Below are positions 5,936 through 25,558 of a stretch of DNA of 64,000 nt, piece after piece. The DNA lies in assembly GCA_965372795.1 (NCBI GenBank), contig CBDVDR010000005.1:64001-128000 (forward strand), in the 5' to 3' direction. The translations under genes and the position numbers were made by a program. Origin of the DNA: an uncultured bacterium. GTDB lineage: Bacteria > Zixibacteria > MSB-5A5 > GN15 > FEB-12. Position 1 is the stretch's first letter, and every line of letters starts with the position of its first letter. A model generated the notes under the pieces. It saw only the letters and a list, made by a program, of their open reading frames with translations, was not told the DNA's origin and searched no databases.

Positions 5936-7414
5936 ATGACTACAAAAATTAAAATTTTCCTGTTGGTTCTCGGATTGTTCTGTCTACCTGCATTTAGTTC
6001 TACAACGGCAAGCGAACTGCCAATTGAGGTAGTAACCTATTCTAATTTTAATTATATTTTATATGTCACCAGTTCATTAAAACATACCTACTTCGCTACA
6101 ACAGAAGGCATTATCCGCTATAATAATATGGAAGAAAGCTGGGCTGAACCTCTTACAGGAACTTATGGGATTGACCATCAGGATATAAGGCGTATCTGGG
6201 TAGATAAGTTTGATGAAAAGCTGTTTGCTCAAACCGGATCATTTCTTTATGAATATGATTTCCTTTTTGAAAAATGGTTTCCATTATCAGAACTGCCTGC
6301 TTTTGAATATGATTTCCGGCATATCAAGGCTCCCGAATTTTTCCATCCGCCATCAGGATATATTTATTCTCCCGATGGCAGCCTGACTGATGCTTTTGGA
6401 CGAGATTATGTGTTGACCGATTTAATCAATGACGGCTCTGGAAATATCTGGATCGGCAGCTGGGGTTTGGGACCGATGCAATCAAGCGAATTAACTTCAT
6501 CGCTGGAACTGTTGCCTTATGGTCTTTTACAAAAACGAGTTGATGCTATCTTAAATGATATGGGTACTTTGTGGGTTGGCGGGTATGCAATTGACCCGGT
6601 TCGGTCCGGGGTGACTATCTTTAATCCCGATGATGATAATTTCAGCTATATAGAATCCGGTCTTCAACTCTATTTTCCGGTTGTCAACATCAGCTGTTTT
6701 GAACAGTTTAATGATTTGATGGTAATCGGTTCAGATAATGGCGTATATTTTGTAGATAAAGAAAAATTTGATGTCTCTGAAAATCTCAATCGCAGAGATG
6801 GAATAACCGACAATAAAATTCTTAGCCTGTTGGCAATTGGTGATACTCTTCTGGTGGGAACTGCCAATGGAATGAATATGGTTACTTCATCCGGCAAGGA
6901 TGTACAACTGGTTTACCCGTCTGAATTTATAAACAAAGTCATATATGATTTCCAACTGGTTGATTCGTCGGTTTGGATTGCAAGCTCATACGGTGTTTAC
7001 CGGATGGCAATTCCATCAGGGAAACTTCAGCAATTCCAGGACAATGAAATGTTCATATTTAATGATGTCTATGATATTGAGCAGTTCGATGATTTTCTCT
7101 TTTTCTCAACCAATAGCGGAGTTTTACAACTAAATATTATGACTGCCGAAATGGTGACTCACCCTTCACAGTCCCACCAATTCACGCCAAGGAAACTGGC
7201 CGTTAATGAAAAAATTATTGCCTTGGGATCAAATGATGGCTTAACAATCATCTTTTACGATAACGATCCGCCTTACAGCAGAACTTTTACAACCGAAGAC
7301 GGATTTCCATCAAACCGAATTTATTCACTTGAAATGGATGGGGATTTTCTATGGATCGGCACTGACAATGGATTAAGCCGATTTTGGTGGAATAATCCGA
7401 GTCGAGTTGATTAA
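5936..7414 (+). CDS. Secreted beta-propeller repeat protein (two-component-regulator propeller-like)
   Basis: Signal peptide; repeated WIGT.NGL / DG.PSN.I blades. Confidence 0.75.
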   Translation: MTTKIKIFLLVLGLFCLPAFSSTTASELPIEVVTYSNFNYILYVTSSLKHTYFATTEGIIRYNNMEESWAEPLTGTYGIDHQDIRRIWVDKFDEKLFAQTGSFLYEYDFLFEKWFPLSELPAFEYDFRHIKAPEFFHPPSGYIYSPDGSLTDAFGRDYVLTDLINDGSGNIWIGSWGLGPMQSSELTSSLELLPYGLLQKRVDAILNDMGTLWVGGYAIDPVRSGVTIFNPDDDNFSYIESGLQLYFPVVNISCFEQFNDLMVIGSDNGVYFVDKEKFDVSENLNRRDGITDNKILSLLAIGDTLLVGTANGMNMVTSSGKDVQLVYPSEFINKVIYDFQLVDSSVWIASSYGVYRMAIPSGKLQQFQDNEMFIFNDVYDIEQFDDFLFFSTNSGVLQLNIMTAEMVTHPSQSHQFTPRKLAVNEKIIALGSNDGLTIIFYDNDPPYSRTFTTEDGFPSNRIYSLEMDGDFLWIGTDNGLSRFWWNNPSRVD

Positions 7415-10374: not shown

Positions 10375-10529
10375 CAATTACATTGAGTTGGGTATAACTC
10401 TTTATAAAGTATAGAGTTTTCATCCTAATTATTTTACAACAAACGTATTTGATTGTCGTATAAAGAGTAACGAATAAAGAGTTAAATTTTGACGGTTATG
10501 CCGTCAATTAAATTATATTGGAGTTTATG

Positions 10530-11399
10530 ATGGAACTCGACCTTCAGGGAAATATAGAACAATTCACATTACCGGAAATTTTTCAATTAGTTGCTTCGGG
10601 ACGTAAATCCGGAACTTTGGGTATTCAGCAAGAAGATACCATTGTTATGATTTATTTCCAGGAAGGTGAGATTATTTACGGGTATGGTCCTCGTGAGACA
10701 TTTCATATTGGCAGTTTACTTAAGGATAAAGGAATCATTTCCAGCGAGCAGCTTGATGAGGCGGTTCGTCAACAAGCCAAAACAGAAAACACAAAGCGCC
10801 TTGGTGAAATTCTTATATCCAAAAATTATATTGATAAGACCGATCTAAATAATGTTGTCACCAATCAGATTGAAGAACTTCTATATTCTCTTCTGACCTG
10901 GAAATCGGGCACCTTTAAGTTTTATGAAAACCAATTCCCCACTGATGAAGAAATTACTGTTAAAGTATCGGTTGAAAATGTTATTCTTGAGGGACTTCGC
11001 CGAACCGATGAAATGAATATGGTCAAAATGACATTACCGGACATTAATAAAGTGTACACCATCTCTGCCACTCAGGGAGACCGACCCCGGGATTTATCTA
11101 TGAAAGCTGATGAGTGGAATATTATGGCATTAGTTGACGGCCATAAAAATATTGATGAGATTTGTCAGATGAGTCATTTGTCTCGCGAGAAAACTTTGGT
11201 AAAACTGGCTCAACTCAAACTTGCCGGTTTAATCACTCCTTATGATCGTCCAAAATCTTCCGGATCATCAGGTGCTCCTGATCTTGAAAATATGATCAAT
11301 CATCTGGCTGGATTATTCGAAGACTACTTGACGGCTAAATCAGAATCCCGCCTTGACCATAGACAGACGACCAACACTTTTGTGGAGAATCTCGATTGA
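10530..11399 (+). CDS. DUF4388 (PatA-N-like) domain protein with MshEN-like insert and C-terminal wHTH-like region
   Basis: LQGNIEQFTLPEIFQLV…KSGTL…IYF.EGEI, LLTWKSGTFKF, ILEGLRRTDE; internal IGSLL…RLGEILI. Confidence 0.85.
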   Translation: MELDLQGNIEQFTLPEIFQLVASGRKSGTLGIQQEDTIVMIYFQEGEIIYGYGPRETFHIGSLLKDKGIISSEQLDEAVRQQAKTENTKRLGEILISKNYIDKTDLNNVVTNQIEELLYSLLTWKSGTFKFYENQFPTDEEITVKVSVENVILEGLRRTDEMNMVKMTLPDINKVYTISATQGDRPRDLSMKADEWNIMALVDGHKNIDEICQMSHLSREKTLVKLAQLKLAGLITPYDRPKSSGSSGAPDLENMINHLAGLFEDYLTAKSESRLDHRQTTNTFVENLD

Positions 11400-12058
11400 C
11401 CGATTATTTTACATTAAAATCCCTTGAAGGATTGCTTGAGGCATTTCTTGCCGGAGTGGTTCATGTTAAACAGAACAGGTTAAAAGTTATAGAGGGAATT
11501 AACCGCCTTGATGATATAGCTCGCTTTACGGATGAAAAGGGTTCAATTGATGATGCAATTGGTGATTGGTTTGCAGATCATTCCCAATGGCTGAATAAGC
11601 AGGATTTGAAGGAAAATGATATTTCACGTATAGGTGGACTTTTAGAAAATATCAGAGGTCATCTTGATCAGAATAAATTAAGTTCTCCTTCCCGCCGGAA
11701 AATCAGTTCAGAAATTGACCGGTGGAGTTCGATGGTAAGTAAAACTCCTAGAAAAGTAGTTTTAAAACGACCTCCAGAACTTAAAACATCAACCGAACAC
11801 GATACTATTGCGATGTATGCCAATCACTTAGATGACATGACCGCTCTTTTCAAGGATAAGGTTGAAGGAAAGAAACATATTCTTTCAATATTGGATGATG
11901 CCTTAAAATCGGCTGTTGACCAAAAGAATAAACAAGCCTTGCTTTTATCGGGGTATATCATATATTATCTCAAACTTGACGGGTACCTTGTCGAGCCTTA
12001 CGTAAAAAGGCTCAAACAAGCCGAACAGTTGCAAAAAGGAGACATGACAAATGCTTAA
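11396..12058 (+). CDS. Hypothetical protein
   Basis: 220-aa ORF, 4-nt overlap with upstream stop, GGAG RBS. Confidence 0.75.
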   Translation: MTDYFTLKSLEGLLEAFLAGVVHVKQNRLKVIEGINRLDDIARFTDEKGSIDDAIGDWFADHSQWLNKQDLKENDISRIGGLLENIRGHLDQNKLSSPSRRKISSEIDRWSSMVSKTPRKVVLKRPPELKTSTEHDTIAMYANHLDDMTALFKDKVEGKKHILSILDDALKSAVDQKNKQALLLSGYIIYYLKLDGYLVEPYVKRLKQAEQLQKGDMTNA

Positions 12059-12299
12059 TCATTTTGAGAAAGCATATTGCCAGGCAATTATTGCACTCAA
12101 GGAGAAAAAATACCGTCAGGCAGCCAGTTGCTTTGAAAATGCGGCACCTTATTATTCCGATAACAAAGAATTTACTTTGTTGATGGAAACAAATAAGATG
12201 CTTTTGGTTGTTAAAGAGAAACTGGCCGAAGAAGAAAATGAAGAGATAATTATAAAGGAGGCGTTCGCGCATGGCAAAGAAACAGAGCTTCTCGGATAA
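12051..12299 (+). CDS. Small hypothetical protein (single TPR-like helical hairpin)
   Basis: AGGAG RBS, overlaps upstream gene, A…K.Y.QA…FE.A pattern. Confidence 0.65.
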   Translation: MLNHFEKAYCQAIIALKEKKYRQAASCFENAAPYYSDNKEFTLLMETNKMLLVVKEKLAEEENEEIIIKEAFAHGKETELLG

Positions 12300-12459
12300 A
12301 TCATCCAAAAAGTCTCATTCTATGAGTTGCCCGGTTTGTCAGGAAGGTTTTCAGTTTATCAAATTTGTGAAGTCTGTCAAGACTGACGTTGGTGCTTGGA
12401 AATTCCGCTCACAAAATATCGGTGTCTGCAAATGTAACCATAAAGAAGTTTACGGCTAA
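12271..12459 (+). CDS. Small basic Cys4 protein, DUF4295/bL38-like candidate
   Basis: AAGGAGG RBS; MAKKQSF…CPVC…IKFVKSVKT..GAWKF…CKC. Confidence 0.7.
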   Translation: MAKKQSFSDKSSKKSHSMSCPVCQEGFQFIKFVKSVKTDVGAWKFRSQNIGVCKCNHKEVYG

Positions 12460-12505: not shown

Positions 12506-12536
12506 AAAAAGCTCTTCCATCCGGGAGAGTTTTTTT
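12506..12536. terminator. Intrinsic terminator between convergent operons
   Basis: AAAAAGCTCTTCC-ATCC-GGGAGAGTTTTTTT hairpin with G-U pairs and U tract. Confidence 0.85.
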
Positions 12537-12577
12537 GTTTGGGGGTATCTATTAATAATTATAATTGATTTGTTAAA

Positions 12578-14632
12578 TTACTTATCCAATTGGTCTTTTG
12601 GATCTATTGGTTTTCCAGCTTTAATTAAGTCGTGTAGCTTCTGAACTCTTGATTCATTGGGACTCTTAATCTCATGAAAAATCTTTATTGCCTCTTCAAA
12701 ATTCCGTATTGATTGTTCAATGTTTTTAGCTCCATAAAAAGCCTTACCCATTTGCCAAAGTGTTAATCCTTTCTCTGAGGGAATTTCTATTTCGCTGTAA
12801 TAAGTAAGTGCCTCTTCATATTTTAAAATTGCCTGATCCCATCTTTCGTAAGCTCTGTCAACATTACCTAATCCCACCAAACAGTCTACTTCTCCATATC
12901 TATTTTTAATTTTTCGAAAAGTTATTTTAGCCTTTTCAAATAACTTTTCAGCAGAATTAAATTTGTTTTGCACTCGTTGAATATTGCCTTGTGAATAAAG
13001 AGTATTTACTTCACCAAATTCATCTCCAATTTTTTGATAGATCGATTTAGCCTTTTCATAATAATCTCTTGCAGAAACATATTGACGCTTCTGAAATTCT
13101 ATACCACCTTGCGAAAAAAGAACATTTGCGACTCCCTGTTTATCTCCAATTTTTTCGTAGATAGATTTTGCCTGCTTATAAAATTCTTCTGCAGAATCAA
13201 ATTGATATAGATAAAAATCAATATCGCCTTGCGATTTAAGAGTATTTGCTTCACCATGTTTACTTCCAATTTCTTGATAGATTGATTCCGCCCTTTTATA
13301 ATATTCTTTTGATAATTCATATTGATCCTTCTGTAACTCTATGCCGCCTTTTGAAAAAAGAACATTTGCAACACCCTGTTTATCTCCGATTTTTATGTAG
13401 ATAGATTCAGCCTGTTCATAAAATTCTTTTGCAGAATCATATTGATCCAGATAAAATTCTATATCACCTTGTGAGCGGAGCGTATTTGCTTTTCCCAGTT
13501 TACTTCCAATTTCTATGTAGATAGATTCAGCCTGTTCATAAAATTCTTTTGCAGAATGATATTGATCTTTTCGAAGTTCAATATCGCCAAGTGAACAGAG
13601 TGTAGTTGCTTCTCCGAGTTTATCGCCAATTTCTCGGTAGATTGTTTCGGCATGTATAAAATATTCTTTTGCTGTGTCGAATTGTTCCTCGTGCAGTTCT
13701 AAATCGCCCTGTGAAAGAAGTGTGTTCGCTTGACCAAGTTTATTCCCAATTTCCCAATATATTATTTTACTCTGTTCGTAATATTCTTTTGCTGAGTCAT
13801 ATTGGTTCTTCCTATGCTCAATATCGCCTTGTAATTTTATAGTATTTGCTACTCCGAGTTTATTTCCAATTTTATGGTAGATAGTTTCAGACTTTTTATA
13901 ATATATTTTTGCCTTATCATAATTTGATAATCTGTTTAGGGCCTGACCATGCGAAAAATTCAGATTCCCCCAAAACAAATCATCATCAATCTTTATTTCT
14001 CTTATTAAATGAATTTTGTCTAAAGCATTGTTCAATTGATATTTGTATAAATCAACTTGTATCTCCCAAAAAAGACAATAAGCTAAAGCTTTTTTTGAAA
14101 CAAGGGCAGCGAAACTTTGCTCATATATATTTCTTATAAGAGCTTCTATTTTATCATAAGCATAAAATGGAGGATTTAACCAATTTATACATGTATTATA
14201 AAATATATCTTCTCCTTTTTCAGCATCTGCGACCAAAAGATTTCGTATATATTCAATCATCCATCCGGTATCATCAAGGTTTTGATCTTTCCCGTAATTT
14301 GCTGCATTGAAACTTAGTATTTTGTAAGTTTTAGGATCGTTCTCCCACAAATGTTTTTGAAGTATTTTCCGGCTTCGTTCGTGAATGTTAAATCCTTTTC
14401 CTTCAAAAGGTTCAACATAGCTTAACGAAATCAAATCATCGAAACCTTTTATCGATGACTTATCTAGAGTTGCACTCAGATATTTTTCATCAAACCAAGT
14501 TAGAATTGAAGCTGCCCTGACTGCGTCACGAATTTCAGAATTGAGGTTTTCAAGGCTGAACTCCATAACCAGCCATTCCCGCTCTTCATCATTTTTGGCA
14601 TTTTCAAGTTTTGCCAGAAAATCTTCAATCAT
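12578..14632 (-). CDS. STAND-type winged-helix + tetratricopeptide repeat protein (sensor half of split NLR-like pair)
   Basis: N-terminal AVRAASILTWFD…L.SLSYVE…FNIHERSR (WHD-like) followed by about 11 40-aa TPR units (G.ANTL..QGDI…QYDSAKE.YEQA.SIY..IG). Confidence 0.9.
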   Translation of the reverse strand: MIEDFLAKLENAKNDEEREWLVMEFSLENLNSEIRDAVRAASILTWFDEKYLSATLDKSSIKGFDDLISLSYVEPFEGKGFNIHERSRKILQKHLWENDPKTYKILSFNAANYGKDQNLDDTGWMIEYIRNLLVADAEKGEDIFYNTCINWLNPPFYAYDKIEALIRNIYEQSFAALVSKKALAYCLFWEIQVDLYKYQLNNALDKIHLIREIKIDDDLFWGNLNFSHGQALNRLSNYDKAKIYYKKSETIYHKIGNKLGVANTIKLQGDIEHRKNQYDSAKEYYEQSKIIYWEIGNKLGQANTLLSQGDLELHEEQFDTAKEYFIHAETIYREIGDKLGEATTLCSLGDIELRKDQYHSAKEFYEQAESIYIEIGSKLGKANTLRSQGDIEFYLDQYDSAKEFYEQAESIYIKIGDKQGVANVLFSKGGIELQKDQYELSKEYYKRAESIYQEIGSKHGEANTLKSQGDIDFYLYQFDSAEEFYKQAKSIYEKIGDKQGVANVLFSQGGIEFQKRQYVSARDYYEKAKSIYQKIGDEFGEVNTLYSQGNIQRVQNKFNSAEKLFEKAKITFRKIKNRYGEVDCLVGLGNVDRAYERWDQAILKYEEALTYYSEIEIPSEKGLTLWQMGKAFYGAKNIEQSIRNFEEAIKIFHEIKSPNESRVQKLHDLIKAGKPIDPKDQLDK
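13020..13925 (-). repeat. 120-bp tandem coding repeats (TPR units)
   Basis: 120-nt periodicity, e.g. a 44-nt exact match between 13394-13437 and 13514-13557. Confidence 0.9.
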
Positions 14633-15423
14633 TATTTATCTGTCTTTAATGGTAAATTCATAATTACTTTCATAATTGCTTCTGGTCGACCCTTGAAAGC
14701 ATGACATACACCTGCAAGCCAGTTCAGTGGATTCTCCACCTCAATATGACGATTTAATTCTTCAACAACAGGCATCCAATCTTTAGCATCAGGGATTCCC
14801 AATAAAGGATAATGATTACAACAATCACCCCACCCAATATTTTTTATATCTGGTATACATTGACCGGCTACAAGAACTCTCATTTGAGGAGTATCTGAGA
14901 CATGTCCTAAAAATGAATCATCCAACCAACTTTTAAACACACTTGTTGCTTTTTCAAAAGTATCTATAATTATCAGCAGGTTATTATCAAAATTTTTAAT
15001 ATCCTGAAACCATGCGTTTGTTAATATCGATTGACGTATTCTTTTATCTTCTTCCTTTTCAGCTCTTAAGGCAATTTCAATACTGCTTCTATCACCTTTT
15101 AATTTGACGTCTTTAATATTAAGATTTATAGTCGTATGTTCAGAATATGTTGAAACCTCATGTTGGAATTCAGGCAATAGTTCCCAGCCCAGTTTATTTA
15201 CTGATCTATAAAAAATATCTGTAACAGAGATTGTTCCGGATTTGCAATCAAAGCCAATATGAATAAGGTCATCTGGGATCCTATTCTTACAGTCAAAAAG
15301 CAGTTTAGTTTTCCCACTACCACTTTCACCTTCAAAAAATAAAATAGGCTTGTCACAATCGGAACAACATAACTCATCAAAAGCGGAACGTTCATCTACA
15401 TAATCTGCGAAAACAGTTGACAT
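14632..15423 (-). CDS. STAND/AAA_16-like P-loop NTPase
   Basis: Walker A GESGSGKT, Walker B LLIIIDTFE, sensor strand RVLVAGQ, C-terminal GxP (KGRP); TAATG overlap with the TPR gene. Confidence 0.85.
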   Translation of the reverse strand: MSTVFADYVDERSAFDELCCSDCDKPILFFEGESGSGKTKLLFDCKNRIPDDLIHIGFDCKSGTISVTDIFYRSVNKLGWELLPEFQHEVSTYSEHTTINLNIKDVKLKGDRSSIEIALRAEKEEDKRIRQSILTNAWFQDIKNFDNNLLIIIDTFEKATSVFKSWLDDSFLGHVSDTPQMRVLVAGQCIPDIKNIGWGDCCNHYPLLGIPDAKDWMPVVEELNRHIEVENPLNWLAGVCHAFKGRPEAIMKVIMNLPLKTDK

Positions 15424-15431
15424 ATTGTTTA

Positions 15432-15749
15432 TTAGTCCTCTTTAGGTCCGATATCAATCTTACTACCTTTACCAATAATTTGAATTTTCTTTGCCTCTAA
15501 ATCATCACCCTTAATTTTAATCTCACTTTCGTCACCATCGATCTTAACATCTTCAATGTCTGCTTTTGTTTCTCCTGTTTGACCGGTGTCTTTCATCTCA
15601 ACCCCGGCCTCTATGCCATCATTGTTAAATTTAAGAAATAATTTCTTTATTTTTTTGCGATTTGGATAAATTACAACAAAAAATAACACCAAGACTACAA
15701 AAGAAATTAAAATAACTAATTGGGTTGTATCCATATCGAAAATCCCCAC
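15432..15749 (-). CDS. Small single-TM protein with C-terminal beta-repeat pair
   Basis: TM helix aa 11-28, basic stop-transfer RKKIKK, two 15-aa repeats 21 aa apart; its 3' end supplies a GAGGA RBS for the NTPase. Confidence 0.75.
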   Translation of the reverse strand: MGIFDMDTTQLVILISFVVLVLFFVVIYPNRKKIKKLFLKFNNDGIEAGVEMKDTGQTGETKADIEDVKIDGDESEIKIKGDDLEAKKIQIIGKGSKIDIGPKED

Positions 15750-15897
15750 ATGTATAATTAGAAAGTCTTATAACTATTTTTTAATTCTTATTATCCTAAT
15801 ATCTGCCTGCTATAGAGATATATCTCTAATATCATTATATAATATTAAATAGTGAACCAATTATCAATAGATTTTTTCTAGTATTTTGTATTGTCCC

Positions 15898-16788
15898 CTA
15901 AGCGTGGGATGTGAGCGGGAAAAGGTATTCAGTATCTTCAAGGGGGAAATCACTCAACAGGTGGGTGCCGTTATCGGTTACCGGAATTAAGTTATCTGCG
16001 ACTGAAACTGAATTGAATTCTTCTAACTTTAATTTGTCCGGCATAAATAAAAACTCGACCGCCTTATCACTCTCATTACAGAGGTATGGATACAGTTCCG
16101 AAAATATCGGAATCTTTTTAGCAACAATATCATAAACGGTAACCGTTCCCTTGTCCCGTTTGAATGATACGATTGTATCAAGCTCTTTGATGTAGTAAAG
16201 ATTATCATTCAAAACATATAAACACCAAAACATAAACAGACGCGGATTGTAAACACCTAACAGGTCAGAGACTGATTCTCTTTCATTGGCATATTTGTAA
16301 ATAAAATCAAGGTCGGCTTTATTGCTGATCTCCAACTTTTTCAAATCTCGTTTGGGAGTTCCCCCGTCAATTTTAATATTTGTTTTATACTCTTCTACTT
16401 TCCTAAAACCGCGATTTTTATAATATTCCTGGGCATCTTCATCAGCAAAAAGGAAAAAGAAATCATGGTTCGGTTTTGCCCAATCCATTGCTTTTTGAGT
16501 AAGTTCAAGATTCAACCCCTGTTTGCGATAATCAGGATGCGTCCCTACCCCGGAAATTTGAGCCACCAATTTACGCTGGCCATTTACAACCATATCCATA
16601 GAATAGACGCAAACATTTGACACTAACATATCTTTGTTAAAGTATGAGAAGGGTCGATAATTATTATCCCAGTAGCCGGCTTTATCCCAAAGAGTAAGAT
16701 CAAGGTTGTGGATAAAATTAAGATGTTTGATGAATTTATCTTTTGACTCTAAATCGTTCCAGTAATTTTCTTTATAAATCAAATCCAT
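15898..16788 (-). CDS. GNAT family N-acetyltransferase
   Basis: VGTHPDYRKQGL acetyl-CoA motif, YYKNRGF. Confidence 0.9.
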   Translation of the reverse strand: MDLIYKENYWNDLESKDKFIKHLNFIHNLDLTLWDKAGYWDNNYRPFSYFNKDMLVSNVCVYSMDMVVNGQRKLVAQISGVGTHPDYRKQGLNLELTQKAMDWAKPNHDFFFLFADEDAQEYYKNRGFRKVEEYKTNIKIDGGTPKRDLKKLEISNKADLDFIYKYANERESVSDLLGVYNPRLFMFWCLYVLNDNLYYIKELDTIVSFKRDKGTVTVYDIVAKKIPIFSELYPYLCNESDKAVEFLFMPDKLKLEEFNSVSVADNLIPVTDNGTHLLSDFPLEDTEYLFPLTSHA

Positions 16789-16821
16789 AAAAAACAATAC
16801 CTTTGTATAATCGTAGAGAAT

Positions 16822-17697
16822 TTATTCGCGCCACAAAGGTCTTGTCAGACAGGTAGGACCGCCGGCACCTTTGGCGGATATTTCATTTCCCTTATAGGTC
16901 AGCACCTCGGCACCAGCCTTTTCAAGGCGTTTCTTTGTAACCGGATTACCCTCAATAGCAATACATTTACGAGGAGCAATCGCCAGGACATTGCAACCCA
17001 TCGAATCAAATTCTTCTTCAGGGACTTCCACCAGTTCTATCCCCCGTTCAAGCAGCCAATTTCTGAAGGGAACCGGCATGATTTTAGAATAAACCAGGGC
17101 AAGGTTTGAATCTATCGGACTGATAAATGACATGAGATGCATGACATCATTAACACCCGTCCAATGCGGAAGCGGCACAACAACAAACTCATCAACTAAG
17201 TCAATCGTTAATTCTCTAAGCTGATCAATGCCAGCTTTATTGGTTCGATAGCCATGCCCAACAACCAAGGTTCGCTCATCAAGCCAGACAATATCGCCAC
17301 CCTCCATTGAACCATCCTCGCAAATCTTCCCTAAAACCGGTACTCCGATTTTTTCAAGATACGCTCCGACCAGAGCCGGTTCGTTTTTTCGATCTTCTTT
17401 TCCCATATTAGCCAAAATCGCACCGTTTTTTGTAATTATAGAAGTATCACGCACGTAGATAGAATCTATTCCAGCTTCAACCGATGATGGCAAATACTCA
17501 AAGTTATCAATCTCAGATTTTAATAATTCCTCAAATTGTTCATACTCATCGAGGGCTTCATTAAAATCAGGGCAATCAAGATAGTTAAATTTTTTCCAGT
17601 ATTCGTCAAGTTTTGATTGGGCGATAAAAGCATCTTTGGGATGACTTAAAAGAATTCTTCTGATATTCGAGATTTCAGACTGACTGCCATGAGACAT
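16822..17697 (-). CDS. Amidinotransferase / dimethylarginine dimethylaminohydrolase-like protein
   Basis: YVRD, EGGD, RTN, MHL, GAGGPTCLTRPL with catalytic Cys. Confidence 0.92.
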   Translation of the reverse strand: MSHGSQSEISNIRRILLSHPKDAFIAQSKLDEYWKKFNYLDCPDFNEALDEYEQFEELLKSEIDNFEYLPSSVEAGIDSIYVRDTSIITKNGAILANMGKEDRKNEPALVGAYLEKIGVPVLGKICEDGSMEGGDIVWLDERTLVVGHGYRTNKAGIDQLRELTIDLVDEFVVVPLPHWTGVNDVMHLMSFISPIDSNLALVYSKIMPVPFRNWLLERGIELVEVPEEEFDSMGCNVLAIAPRKCIAIEGNPVTKKRLEKAGAEVLTYKGNEISAKGAGGPTCLTRPLWRE

Positions 17698-24933: not shown

Positions 24934-25398
24934 TTAGTTCATATTAAGAATTGTTTTTCGACAGTCAGGGGCACCACATTTACAAGGGTAGCTTTTCTGG
25001 GCTTCTTCAATTGTCTCATCGTCGGCAACAAATGAATAGTCGTAGGTTAGCTCTTCGCCTTTTTCAATTGTACAAATGGCTTCAATAAAAATACGATCGT
25101 TAACATTAATAGACTCACAGTTAGGTGAGCAGGAATGATTTATATAACGGGCATCATTACCTCTAACTGTAGCATCAATTGTAATTTCATCATCAATTTC
25201 AAACAGATAAGTCTGGTGTCTTTCCGGATCTACTTCACTGTAACGGCGTTCTTCTTCCTCGACTGTTATAATCTCACCGAGATATTCAATAATGCGTTTA
25301 CCTTTTTTAATTCTATTGGATGCAAAGACACCTTTACCATGTATCCCTGAATCTTCAACAATTATCATATTCTTTTTTTGTTTTCTAACTGAAGTCAT
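24934..25398 (-). CDS. SET domain protein-lysine methyltransferase
   Basis: SGIHGKGVFA, IIEYLGE, ARYINHSCSPN, GEELTYDY, post-SET CKCGAPDCR. Confidence 0.95.
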   Translation of the reverse strand: MTSVRKQKKNMIIVEDSGIHGKGVFASNRIKKGKRIIEYLGEIITVEEEERRYSEVDPERHQTYLFEIDDEITIDATVRGNDARYINHSCSPNCESINVNDRIFIEAICTIEKGEELTYDYSFVADDETIEEAQKSYPCKCGAPDCRKTILNMN

Positions 25399-25558
25399 GT
25401 TTAAACCTTTTACAATTTCTGATATTAACAATCAAATAATATTTGACTAAATTTAACCACTATTTAAATAATTCAAAGAGCAAATTTTGAACAGCTTTTG
25501 ATTTCCCCAAAACAATTCAACTTTGCTTGTCTACTAAACATTACGTATAAAAAATAAA

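Follow-up and report, generated by a model that had tools for sequence, protein, structure and literature searches.

NLR/STAND receptors (NOD-like receptors, named for the nucleotide-binding oligomerization domain or NOD, and signal transduction ATPases with numerous domains) are regarded as single chains that are activated by an internal rotation at the hinge between helical domain 1 (HD1) and the winged-helix domain (WHD); the nucleotide-binding domain (NBD), HD1, WHD and sensor of STAND proteins are reportedly normally held in one chain, as the 'numerous domains' of the name. A minus-strand locus at positions 12578–15749 of the window, by which we mean the whole 64,000-nucleotide stretch of contig CBDVDR010000005.1 that was analyzed, raises the question of whether such a receptor can instead be built from two chains that meet at this hinge. 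The original prediction for this DNA described an NLR-like receptor split into two translationally coupled genes, one for an NTPase with HD1 and one for a WHD followed by tetratricopeptide repeats (TPRs). Our analysis leads us to read the locus as a three-gene, translationally coupled split NLR-like (STAND) conflict system with a motif-recruited effector, and we assign this reading a probability of roughly 0.6.

The locus consists of three consecutive open reading frames (ORFs) on the minus strand: gene 1 at 15432–15749 (105 aa), gene 2 at 14632–15423 (263 aa) and gene 3 at 12578–14632 (684 aa). The junction between gene 2 and gene 3 reads gataaaTAATGattgaa, including aaaTAATGatt, where the TAA stop of gene 2 (14634–14632) and the ATG start of gene 3 (14632–14630) have one base in common; reading the junction thus confirms the TAATG stop/start overlap previously placed at 14630–14634 (−). 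The stop codon of gene 1 and the start codon of gene 2 are 8 nt apart, and a GAGG sequence lies within the final codons of gene 1. The pairing of gene 2 with gene 3 was correctly recognized in the earlier two-gene description of the cassette, but the coupled gene at 15432–15749 was overlooked.

The split between gene 2 and gene 3 occurs at the same place in homologues. Of 14 close NTPase homologues in a collection of 5.8 billion proteins, 11 are 258–267 aa in length and have the same end point. Scanning genome and metagenome contigs for patterns of the family, we recovered 23 distinct loci with a substantial match (L002–L009 and L013–L028, where L020 is the contig of L006), and sequence past the NTPase stop is readable in 20 of them. 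Three loci do not enter this count: L009 is only weakly and partially homologous and lacks a partner, L024 has a truncated NTPase followed by 105 nt of dissimilar sequence, and the contig of L026 breaks off within the NTPase. At 19 of the 20 readable loci the following gene begins at the NTPase stop or overlaps it, or begins after a 4-nt spacer in L008, and opens with the conserved N-terminus of the partner protein found in the window; the exception is L025. The geometry of the junction varies: most are 4-base ATGA or GTGA overlaps, whereas the stop and start are TGA/ATG in frame in L002, overlap by 8 bases in L022 and by 13 bases in L027 and L028, are separated by 4 bases in L008 and have the 1-base TAATG overlap in the window. 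This variety indicates that a frameshift or an assembly error does not explain the split.

Among the best family matches in a larger collection we found no single-chain counterpart of this receptor. A HMMER profile of the family matched 1103 of 1.84 billion representatives at E ≤ 1e-3, of which 507 remain at E ≤ 1e-10 and 153 at E ≤ 1e-30. The longest of the best 150 of these 1103 representatives is 524 aa, 101 are 230–300 aa, and none of the 150 has a single-chain NTPase–WHD–TPR form. A word-based search for fused NTPase forms among proteins of 462–2000 aa gave 842 candidates and none at E ≤ 0.001, a negative result that carries little weight. The modules that would be expected in one STAND polypeptide are therefore divided between two ORFs both here and in 19 of 20 loci, and the split at the HD1/WHD boundary is conserved and not an artefact. 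Two individual loci contain interrupted genes. The gene after the NTPase at L025:963–1106 has a partner-like start and stops after 47 codons, and may be a degraded copy. In an Anaerolineales metagenome-assembled genome (MAG), the NTPase homologue at L004:5617–6789 is broken by an in-frame TAG at 6274–6276 into pieces of 219 and 170 aa; the flanking small transmembrane (TM) and TPR genes look intact, and the interruption could reflect a pseudogene or a sequencing error.

Gene 2 (14632–15423, −) encodes a 263-aa STAND-type NTPase composed of an NBD and HD1. Alignment of 14 sequences shows an invariant set made up of the Walker residues, D154, E157, R182 and P247. The Walker A motif is GESGSGKT (residues 32–39; 15307–15330, −), in which G32, S34, G35, G37, K38 and T39 are invariant. 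The Walker B region (residues 150–157; 14953–14976, −), where D154 and E157 are invariant, overlaps the stretch LLIIIDTFE (residues 147–155), which has the form hhhhDTFE. The GxP motif of HD1 is formed by G245–R246–P247 (14683–14691, −), with P247 invariant and G245 present in at least 90% of sequences. This motif lies within HAFKGRPEAI (residues 241–250), which ends 13 residues short of the C-terminus at 263. As had been noticed from the sequence, the NTPase stops soon after GxP, in fact 16 residues past the motif. The AlphaFold2 model based on the 14-sequence alignment has a predicted local distance difference test (pLDDT) score of 83.8, and places the helices at residues 210–255 after the NBD. 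Gene 2 therefore supplies two of the expected STAND elements: the first is an AAA+/ASCE-type P-loop NBD that carries both Walker motifs, and the second is an HD1 that follows the NBD and contains GxP.

Structural comparison places the NTPase among STAND and related ATPases. In a Foldseek search the top match to the NTPase model is MalT (8bob_C, E 1e-5), with PAB2304, ORC subunits and CED-4 next in rank. VIA, a search that is independent of Foldseek, ranks Cdc6 (Z 13.2), MalT residues 14–185 (Z 13.0, rmsd 3.2, 163 aligned residues) and the STAND-TPR protein 6mfv (Z 12.3) as tied; fold matches also include Avs. Because Cdc6 and MalT are tied, structure alone describes the protein as STAND or Orc/Cdc6-type AAA+. 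In phmmer the NTPase has no match among PDB sequences, and a profile search finds only P-loop-level ones, such as midasin and Rad24. The window NTPase also scores below the Pfam gathering cut-offs for AAA_16 (14.9 bits against 32.6) and NACHT (PF05729; 13.7 against 26.7), and NB-ARC (PF00931) is unlisted. Four relatives pass the AAA_16 (PF13191) threshold (P0122, 38.1; P0051, 37.5; P0144, 34.8; and P0068, 33.6 bits), so the family lies at the edge of AAA_16.

Gene 3 (12578–14632, −) encodes a 684-aa sensor subunit with an N-terminal helix, a WHD, a helical arm and a TPR array. The WHD (about residues 14–98; 14339–14593, −) has a β-hairpin wing at 73–83 and is followed by the arm (about residues 100–219; 13976–14335, −), which aligns to the MalT arm up to residue 225. 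As anticipated, the protein starts with a winged-helix-like segment containing 'IHE' and continues with TPRs. The sequence FNIHERSRK occupies residues 81–89, and its H84, E85 and R88 are invariant in 18 homologues, giving a WHD with a conserved MHD-like His, here on the second polypeptide. Eleven TPR_12-type units with an exact 40-aa period follow from residue 220 to residue 659 (12656–13975, −), forming a repeat sensor C-terminal to the NOD. Pfam matches are to TPR_12 (E 5.7e-55) and TPR_MalT (E 2.1e-14). At the DNA level the array contains repeats of 120 bp (7.8 copies, 69% match) and 240 bp (2.5 copies, 80% match); those at 12981–13912 could permit gain or loss of units by recombination. 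The model of the first 250 residues (pLDDT 95) shows helices, the wing (73–83) and then paired helices. Its top Foldseek match is the STAND-TPR protein 6mfv_A (E 2.7e-3), with none at E ≤ 1e-3, and the top VIA match to the first 225 residues is MalT 247–417, comprising the MalT WHD and arm (Z 13.6, rmsd 3.9 Å, 160 residues aligned, model residues 14–225). This is the only VIA match that spans the N-terminal 130 residues of the protein.

The products of genes 2 and 3 therefore match consecutive parts of MalT, residues 14–185 and then 247–417, which indicates that the chain is cut at the HD1/WHD boundary. The MalT matches of the two halves agree with the division into NTPase–HD1 and WHD–TPR that was originally proposed.

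If the two chains form one receptor, they would be expected to associate across the cut. A model of the complex between the NTPase and the gene 3 protein has an ipSAE of 0.79 (0.81, 0.78 and 0.79 in individual runs), compared with 0.01 for the best control; 116 of 157 solved complexes and 2 of 215 mismatched pairs attained this mark. The runs have at least 92% of contacts in common, with a partner pLDDT of at least 89. In the modeled interface NTPase residues 227–257, 34–39, 59–66 and 158–163 face partner residues 1–29, 70–87 and 122–168. The HD1 helices of the NTPase (227–257) pack on the first helices of the partner (1–29), and the WHD segment 70–87, with H84 and E85, is positioned beside the P-loop (34–39) and also beside residues 59–66 and 158–163. 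Partner residues 84–87 share the predicted interface with P-loop residues 34–39 in this protein-only model, and the NTPase loop residues 101–103 and 120–127 touch the sensor subunit. The predicted heterodimer has the geometry of a closed, resting NOD module like that of MalT or Apaf-1. The model thus supports binding of the two receptor chains to one another, consistent with the heterodimeric receptor that had been suggested.

The same suggestion included a sensor that could be swapped independently of the NTPase, which at gene level is not supported. NTPase identity and the identity of the partner N-terminus are correlated among 18 loci (r = 0.81, 153 pairs), and none of 5000 Mantel permutations gave a value as high. 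The co-variation implies that the sensor gene is inherited with its NTPase. What does vary is the length of the TPR array, with the eight complete partner proteins ranging from 438 to 718 aa.

Gene 1 (15432–15749, −) encodes a small single-pass membrane protein of 105 aa when read from the GTG at 15749. The likelier start is the ATG at 15734, which gives 100 aa and is preferred because GGGGA lies 8 nt upstream and homologues begin at that Met. No credible Pfam, PADLOC or NCBIfam family was found for the protein. Its hydrophobic helix (L11–Y28; 15666–15719, −) is followed by the basic sequence NRKKIKK. According to the positive-inside rule the basic flank of a TM helix is on the cytoplasmic side, and the C-terminus of the gene 1 protein is accordingly predicted from its sequence to be cytoplasmic. 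This C-terminus carries a double pseudo-repeat (residues 64–101; 15447–15560, −) in which G72 and G93 are invariant; each copy spans roughly 20 residues and has the form hydrophobic-x-hydrophobic … G … hydrophobic-x-hydrophobic. The family consensus for the double repeat of upstream genes is V.ISGN.Q.G..N.IDV followed by DV.V.DN.Q.G.DQ.I.V.

A single copy of this motif is present in the NTPase, V.IDRNWL.GINN.INVAL at residues 99–119 (15067–15129, −), with G110, I115 and L119 invariant. It occupies an NBD loop between Walker A and Walker B in which the AlphaFold2 pLDDT is below 50 at residues 98–109. An hhalign comparison of the NTPase and gene 1 alignments pairs exactly the motif segments, with a probability of 21.7% and an E of 1e-3. 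When 16-mers of the NTPase loop are scanned against the genome, the gene 1 ORF, which scores 47 (mean 14.6, sd 5.2), takes third place among 18,075 ORFs and is the best match to the motif core. Above it are the NTPase itself and a PBP/FtsI-like ORF (G000 C1:221995–224118, −) that scores 53; in the latter, 16 residues close to the C-terminus resemble the helix before the loop and not the motif, and we judged it a chance match. Across 18 loci, cognate motif pairs score a mean of 33.2 compared with 24.3 for non-cognate pairs, and none of 10,000 permutations reached this value, although kinship among the loci inflates this test. The cognate motif is ranked first in 6 of the 18 loci and first or second in 8. 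Lineage-specific matches can also be seen by eye, as in FSEND in both L027 proteins, KLTG in L022 and IKQKG in L002.

The split layout with a double repeat next to the NTPase recurs in related loci from several phyla. In 19 of 22 entries (21 loci and the window) a collinear gene upstream of the NTPase carries the double repeat at its end, and the other three are cut by contig ends. Sixteen of these 19 genes, from 15 loci besides the window, encode small TM proteins. A 369-aa α/β-hydrolase (Abhydrolase_6, E 1.6e-8) is what the double repeat terminates in L019, and in L021 and L024 it terminates proteins with an EAD7 domain (E 1e-19 and 8e-24). The motif common to gene 1 and the NTPase probably couples the two proteins, as judged from their sequences.

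Fusions within the NTPase family give a view of what this loop may do. We scanned all 23 representatives longer than 300 aa with Pfam. EAD7 is present at the C-terminus of 14 (in three below the Pfam cut-off) and at the N-terminus of P0143. TIR_2 (P0051, E 5.6e-16), Trypsin_2 (P0098, E 1.2e-9) and PNP_UDP_1 (P0080, E 1.2e-18) occur once each, P0038 carries the OmpR-type DNA-binding domain Trans_reg_C (E 8.8e-18), and P0084 has a weak, sub-threshold caspase domain (Peptidase_C14). No additional Pfam domain was found in P0128 or P0155. In P0064 the EAD7 domain is inserted at residues 110–171, the place that the loop motif occupies in the window NTPase; P0155 contains a different helical insert of ∼100 aa (about residues 105–213) at the same NBD loop. 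With an HMM at i-E ≤ 0.01, the loop motif is detected in 51 of 101 bare NTPases of 230–300 aa and in 17 of 26 fragments, but in none of the 23 fused or inserted forms. The motif, an inserted adaptor and a fused effector thus appear to stand in for one another. In Kaur et al. 2020 (PMC7159879) the effector-associated domains (EADs), of which EAD7 is one, are described as adaptors that are predicted to act homotypically and to recruit effectors to core NTPases. The sequences of the fused forms thus point to a conflict system in which the loop would be the coupling site.

The model that we favor takes the gene structure, the conserved split, the folds, the fusions and the shared motif as observed and the closed heterodimer as modeled. 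Gene 2 would provide the NBD and HD1, gene 3 the WHD, arm and 11-unit TPR sensor, and gene 1 a membrane protein with two cytoplasmic copies of the motif. A ligand bound by the TPR array would free the closed state, allowing the NTPase to swap its nucleotide and oligomerize. The single motif of the flexible NBD loop would then engage the two terminal copies of the gene 1 protein, and the membrane proteins would cluster and harm the membrane, with an abortive-infection-type outcome. The motif would thereby act as an adaptor in place of a fused effector or an EAD domain. Motif capture in this scheme could occur by amyloid-like templating or by ordinary β-strand docking. A free N-terminus would be a more obvious amyloid template than an internal loop, and the copies in the window are unusually charged.

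A bolder version of this model is that the family is a distinct class of NLR-like immune receptor. The HD1–WHD hinge would have become a subunit interface, with activation by release or re-docking of the sensor chain rather than by intramolecular rotation, and the NBD-loop motif would form a prion-like, HET-s-style β-arch that templates the two-rung repeat and leads to membrane rupture. We regard this combination as tentative and, taken as a whole, rather improbable. Trans-complementation is said to have a precedent in plant NLRs.

Several observations weigh against a motif-coupled conflict system. Structure by itself cannot tell STAND from Orc/Cdc6 ATPases, given the tie between Cdc6 and MalT described above, and the window NTPase has only sub-threshold Pfam matches (AAA_22, AAA_16 and NACHT). 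The success of the complex model may merely echo intra-chain contacts of solved single-chain STAND proteins. Profile methods find the homology between the two motif-bearing segments to be weak, as the low hhalign probability indicates, and an HMM of 18 NTPase loops retrieved only the NTPase, and not the gene 1 protein, from the 18,075 ORFs of the genome. The cognate motif is ranked tenth or lower in 5 of the 18 loci. The AlphaFold2 model of the loop has low confidence and a short helix and shows no β structure. PADLOC-DB v2.0.0 contains no model for gene 1 or gene 2, and gene 3 matches generic TPR models only. The window has no defence-island context, and the neighbors are GNAT, arginine-deiminase-like, PAS histidine kinase, SET-domain, MFS transporter and similar genes. 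Finally, binding, ATPase activity, toxicity, an immune role, the action of the effector and the order of events are all computational predictions.

The strongest alternative, although in our estimate an unlikely one, is a split MalT/AfsR-like signaling ATPase with a regulatory, non-immune role, for example in transcription or development, whose membrane protein would just anchor or localize the complex. MalT, which gives the best structural matches, is a transcription activator; P0038 carries a Trans_reg_C domain; and the window has signaling and housekeeping neighbors and no known defence genes. The window proteins, however, have no DNA-binding or other output domain in Pfam, and 20 of the 21 fused forms with an extra Pfam domain are of conflict type (17 above the cut-off), with DNA binding represented by one.

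The occurrence of the cassette, which is patchy and accessory-like, also argues against such a regulatory role. A profile of the NTPase found no homologue in 40 related genomes (24 from the same family and one from the same genus) except for a 20-bit match to the P-loop only. The converging plus-strand operon (10518–12299) was found in all five relatives tested, and in three relatives whose flanks were compared, similarity to the window ends at the end of this operon. In 400 more genomes from the phylum of L006, there was no other carrier at E ≤ 1e-20 when six candidates per genome were scored. The closest homologues (55–59% identity) are in MAGs labeled Brocadia and Paraglaciecola, and others are in Chloroflexota and Acidobacteriota. 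The source names of close homologues, where shown, are all 'hypothetical protein'; Atlas cluster labels are 'hypothetical' or 'putative ATP-binding', and the family is mostly metagenomic and seemingly unannotated. The absence of matches in relatives and the scattered homologues indicate that the cassette is accessory, as originally proposed from its appearance, and patchy. We also rejected the idea that the cassette belongs to a defence island or a mobile element, with no integrase, transposase or known defence gene among the ORFs scanned at 9.4–30 kb. Just upstream of the cassette, at 15898–17697 (−), are the GNAT acetyltransferase and arginine-deiminase-like genes. The GNAT gene has no credible match in five related genomes, the only one being a 22.7-bit fragment in the same-genus genome. 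Since it is likewise unmatched, the non-syntenic stretch may reach beyond the cassette.

A second alternative, to which we give clearly less credence, accepts the shared motif but reverses its role. The gene 1 protein would be an inhibitor or decoy whose motif copies block the NTPase loop in an antitoxin-like manner until they are displaced. The proteins have the motif in common, the genes are tightly coupled and gene 1 is first; moreover, loop residues 101–103 and 120–127 contact the sensor in the complex model, so the loop may belong to a regulated interface. The same double repeat is nevertheless found elsewhere on α/β-hydrolase and EAD7 adaptor proteins, and in other members of the family an EAD7 that is inserted or fused, or an effector domain, takes the place of the loop motif; both points fit a recruiting tag better than an inhibitor. 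The weakest alternative, that the split is an artefact or a recent pseudogenization of a single-chain STAND gene by a frameshift or nonsense mutation at 14632, has in its favor that STAND proteins are reportedly usually single-chain but is close to refuted by two intact, co-diverging ORFs (r = 0.81), by the two-ORF form of 19 of 20 loci from several phyla with at least five junction geometries, and by the finding that none of the best 150 representatives is long enough to include the sensor.

The conflict-system reading relates the locus to four kinds of known system. The order NBD, HD1 with GxP, WHD with a conserved His, arm and TPR sensor is that of MalT, PH0952 (6mfv), Avs and AfsR; consecutive parts of MalT are the best structural matches of the two halves, and Walker A, Walker B and GxP are conserved. 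Whereas MalT-type proteins are single chains, almost all members of the window family that were seen have the chain divided between HD1 and WHD. The window proteins also differ from single-chain STAND proteins in having no N-terminal effector or DNA-binding domain and in carrying an adaptor motif (EAD7 in relatives) inside the NBD loop, and from Pfam-recognized STAND proteins in falling under the NB-ARC, NACHT and AAA_16 thresholds.

The second comparison is with amyloid-signaling systems, by description in passages of Dyrka et al. 2020 (10.1101/2020.01.06.895854). There the HRAM, BASS1 and BASS6 motifs are double on the effector and single on the NLR, the two being encoded by collinear adjacent or overlapping genes, and an α/β-hydrolase is reported as an alternative effector alongside 'all-in-one' relatives. 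The window resembles the fungal HET-S/NWD2 (HRAM) and bacterial BASS1–10 Bell/NLR pairs in the collinearity of its effector and NLR genes, which are adjacent or overlap, and in a short G/N/Q/V/I-rich motif that occurs at the C-terminus of the effector and in the NLR. The likeness extends to the number of pseudo-repeats (two for the effector and one for the NLR, as in HRAM, BASS1 and BASS6), to the occurrence of the motif on an α/β-hydrolase and to the existence of fused-effector relatives. The effector C-terminus and the product of the neighboring NLR gene thus carry one short motif, with weak profile support (hhalign probability 21.7%). In these described systems the NLR-side motif is at the extreme N-terminus, upstream of the NOD, whereas in the window it is in an internal NBD loop (99–119) between Walker A and Walker B. 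The effector of the window, a single-TM protein of roughly 100 aa, has a pre-motif part too short for the Bell domain of the described Bell/NLR pairs; moreover, its NLR is split and its motif copies are rich in K, D and E, unlike the described HRAM and BASS motifs.

Comparison by description with the Bab/Agp antiphage system of E. coli (Ibarlosa et al. 2024, 10.1101/2024.11.07.622273) shows a small executioner, Bab (109 aa), that starts with a hydrophobic helix and ends in a motif common to an adjacent TPR-containing sensor gene. Four short glycine-broken strands are predicted there for BASS11, and the double repeat of the window contains four hydrophobic-x-hydrophobic-x-G units. In contrast to the window, the sensor-side motif of Bab/Agp is described as N-terminal and Bab as having a 90-residue globular domain.

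The fourth likeness is to the EAD principle, as set out in passages of PMC7159879 and PMC8195603, by which a core NTPase and separately encoded effectors each bear the same small adaptor. EAD7 is fused to or inserted in members of the NTPase family of the window and heads two motif-bearing upstream proteins; the adaptor of the window itself, unlike an EAD, is a repeat motif of roughly 20 residues and not a helical Death-like domain. We found no published description of the split NTPase family, including in passages of PMC7159879, PMC8195603 and PMC13581612, whose supplements could list it; in the passages of PMC13581612, 'split proteins' appears only in a methods line on Avs7/Dsr1.

The components and the logic of the system are therefore known ones: STAND/NLR proteins, a TPR sensor, EADs and motif-coupled effectors. 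What is seemingly new, in that we did not find it described, is a receptor cut at the HD1–WHD hinge, a coupling element inside the NBD and a minimal single-TM partner. A natural family cut at this hinge would be a ready system for autoinhibition and activation in trans, and it would illustrate three interchangeable routes for linking effectors to such receptors, namely direct fusion, an EAD domain or a short repeat motif. Because the window NTPase falls below the Pfam cut-offs and its motif is internal, surveys based on NB-ARC or NACHT, on N-terminal motifs or on single genes would be expected to miss the family. The family should be of interest for work on prokaryotic immunity and NLR mechanism, on the strength of computational evidence.

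What the earlier description stated of the sequence holds throughout, including its points on the composition and flanks of the cassette. The cassette was said to be visibly AT-rich; its GC content is indeed lower (0.332 compared with 0.379 for the window), but the difference is modest and not striking. The 148-bp 5′ gap at 15750–15897 is AT-rich by base composition, as stated, and contains one promoter-like site, TTGATA-17-TATTAT (15839–15867, −, read from 15867 to 15839). This is a weak candidate, and promoter-like sites are not enriched in the region (14 observed compared with 16.5 expected from shuffles).

The cassette also converges on the terminator of a core operon, as proposed: a hairpin with a U-run (U7) at about 12506–12537 (+) lies between gene 3 and the converging plus-strand operon, which is kept in five of five relatives. 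The folding energy of the hairpin is −15.7 kcal/mol on the plus strand (z −2.86) and −7.5 kcal/mol on the minus strand (z −1.11). It is therefore strong on the plus strand and weak on the minus strand, and is mainly the terminator of the converging operon. Farther from the cassette, a 165-aa bacterial SET-domain protein (PF00856, E 7e-28) is encoded at 24934–25431 (−), next to an MFS transporter gene. The converging operon, at 10518–12459 (+), consists of genes for a DUF4388 protein (E 5e-37) and for a 220-aa protein that matches no Pfam family, together with two small ORFs, of which the one at 12271–12459 (+) has a CxxC…CxC spacing. The first three genes of this operon are in the same order in the relatives G009, G015 and G022.

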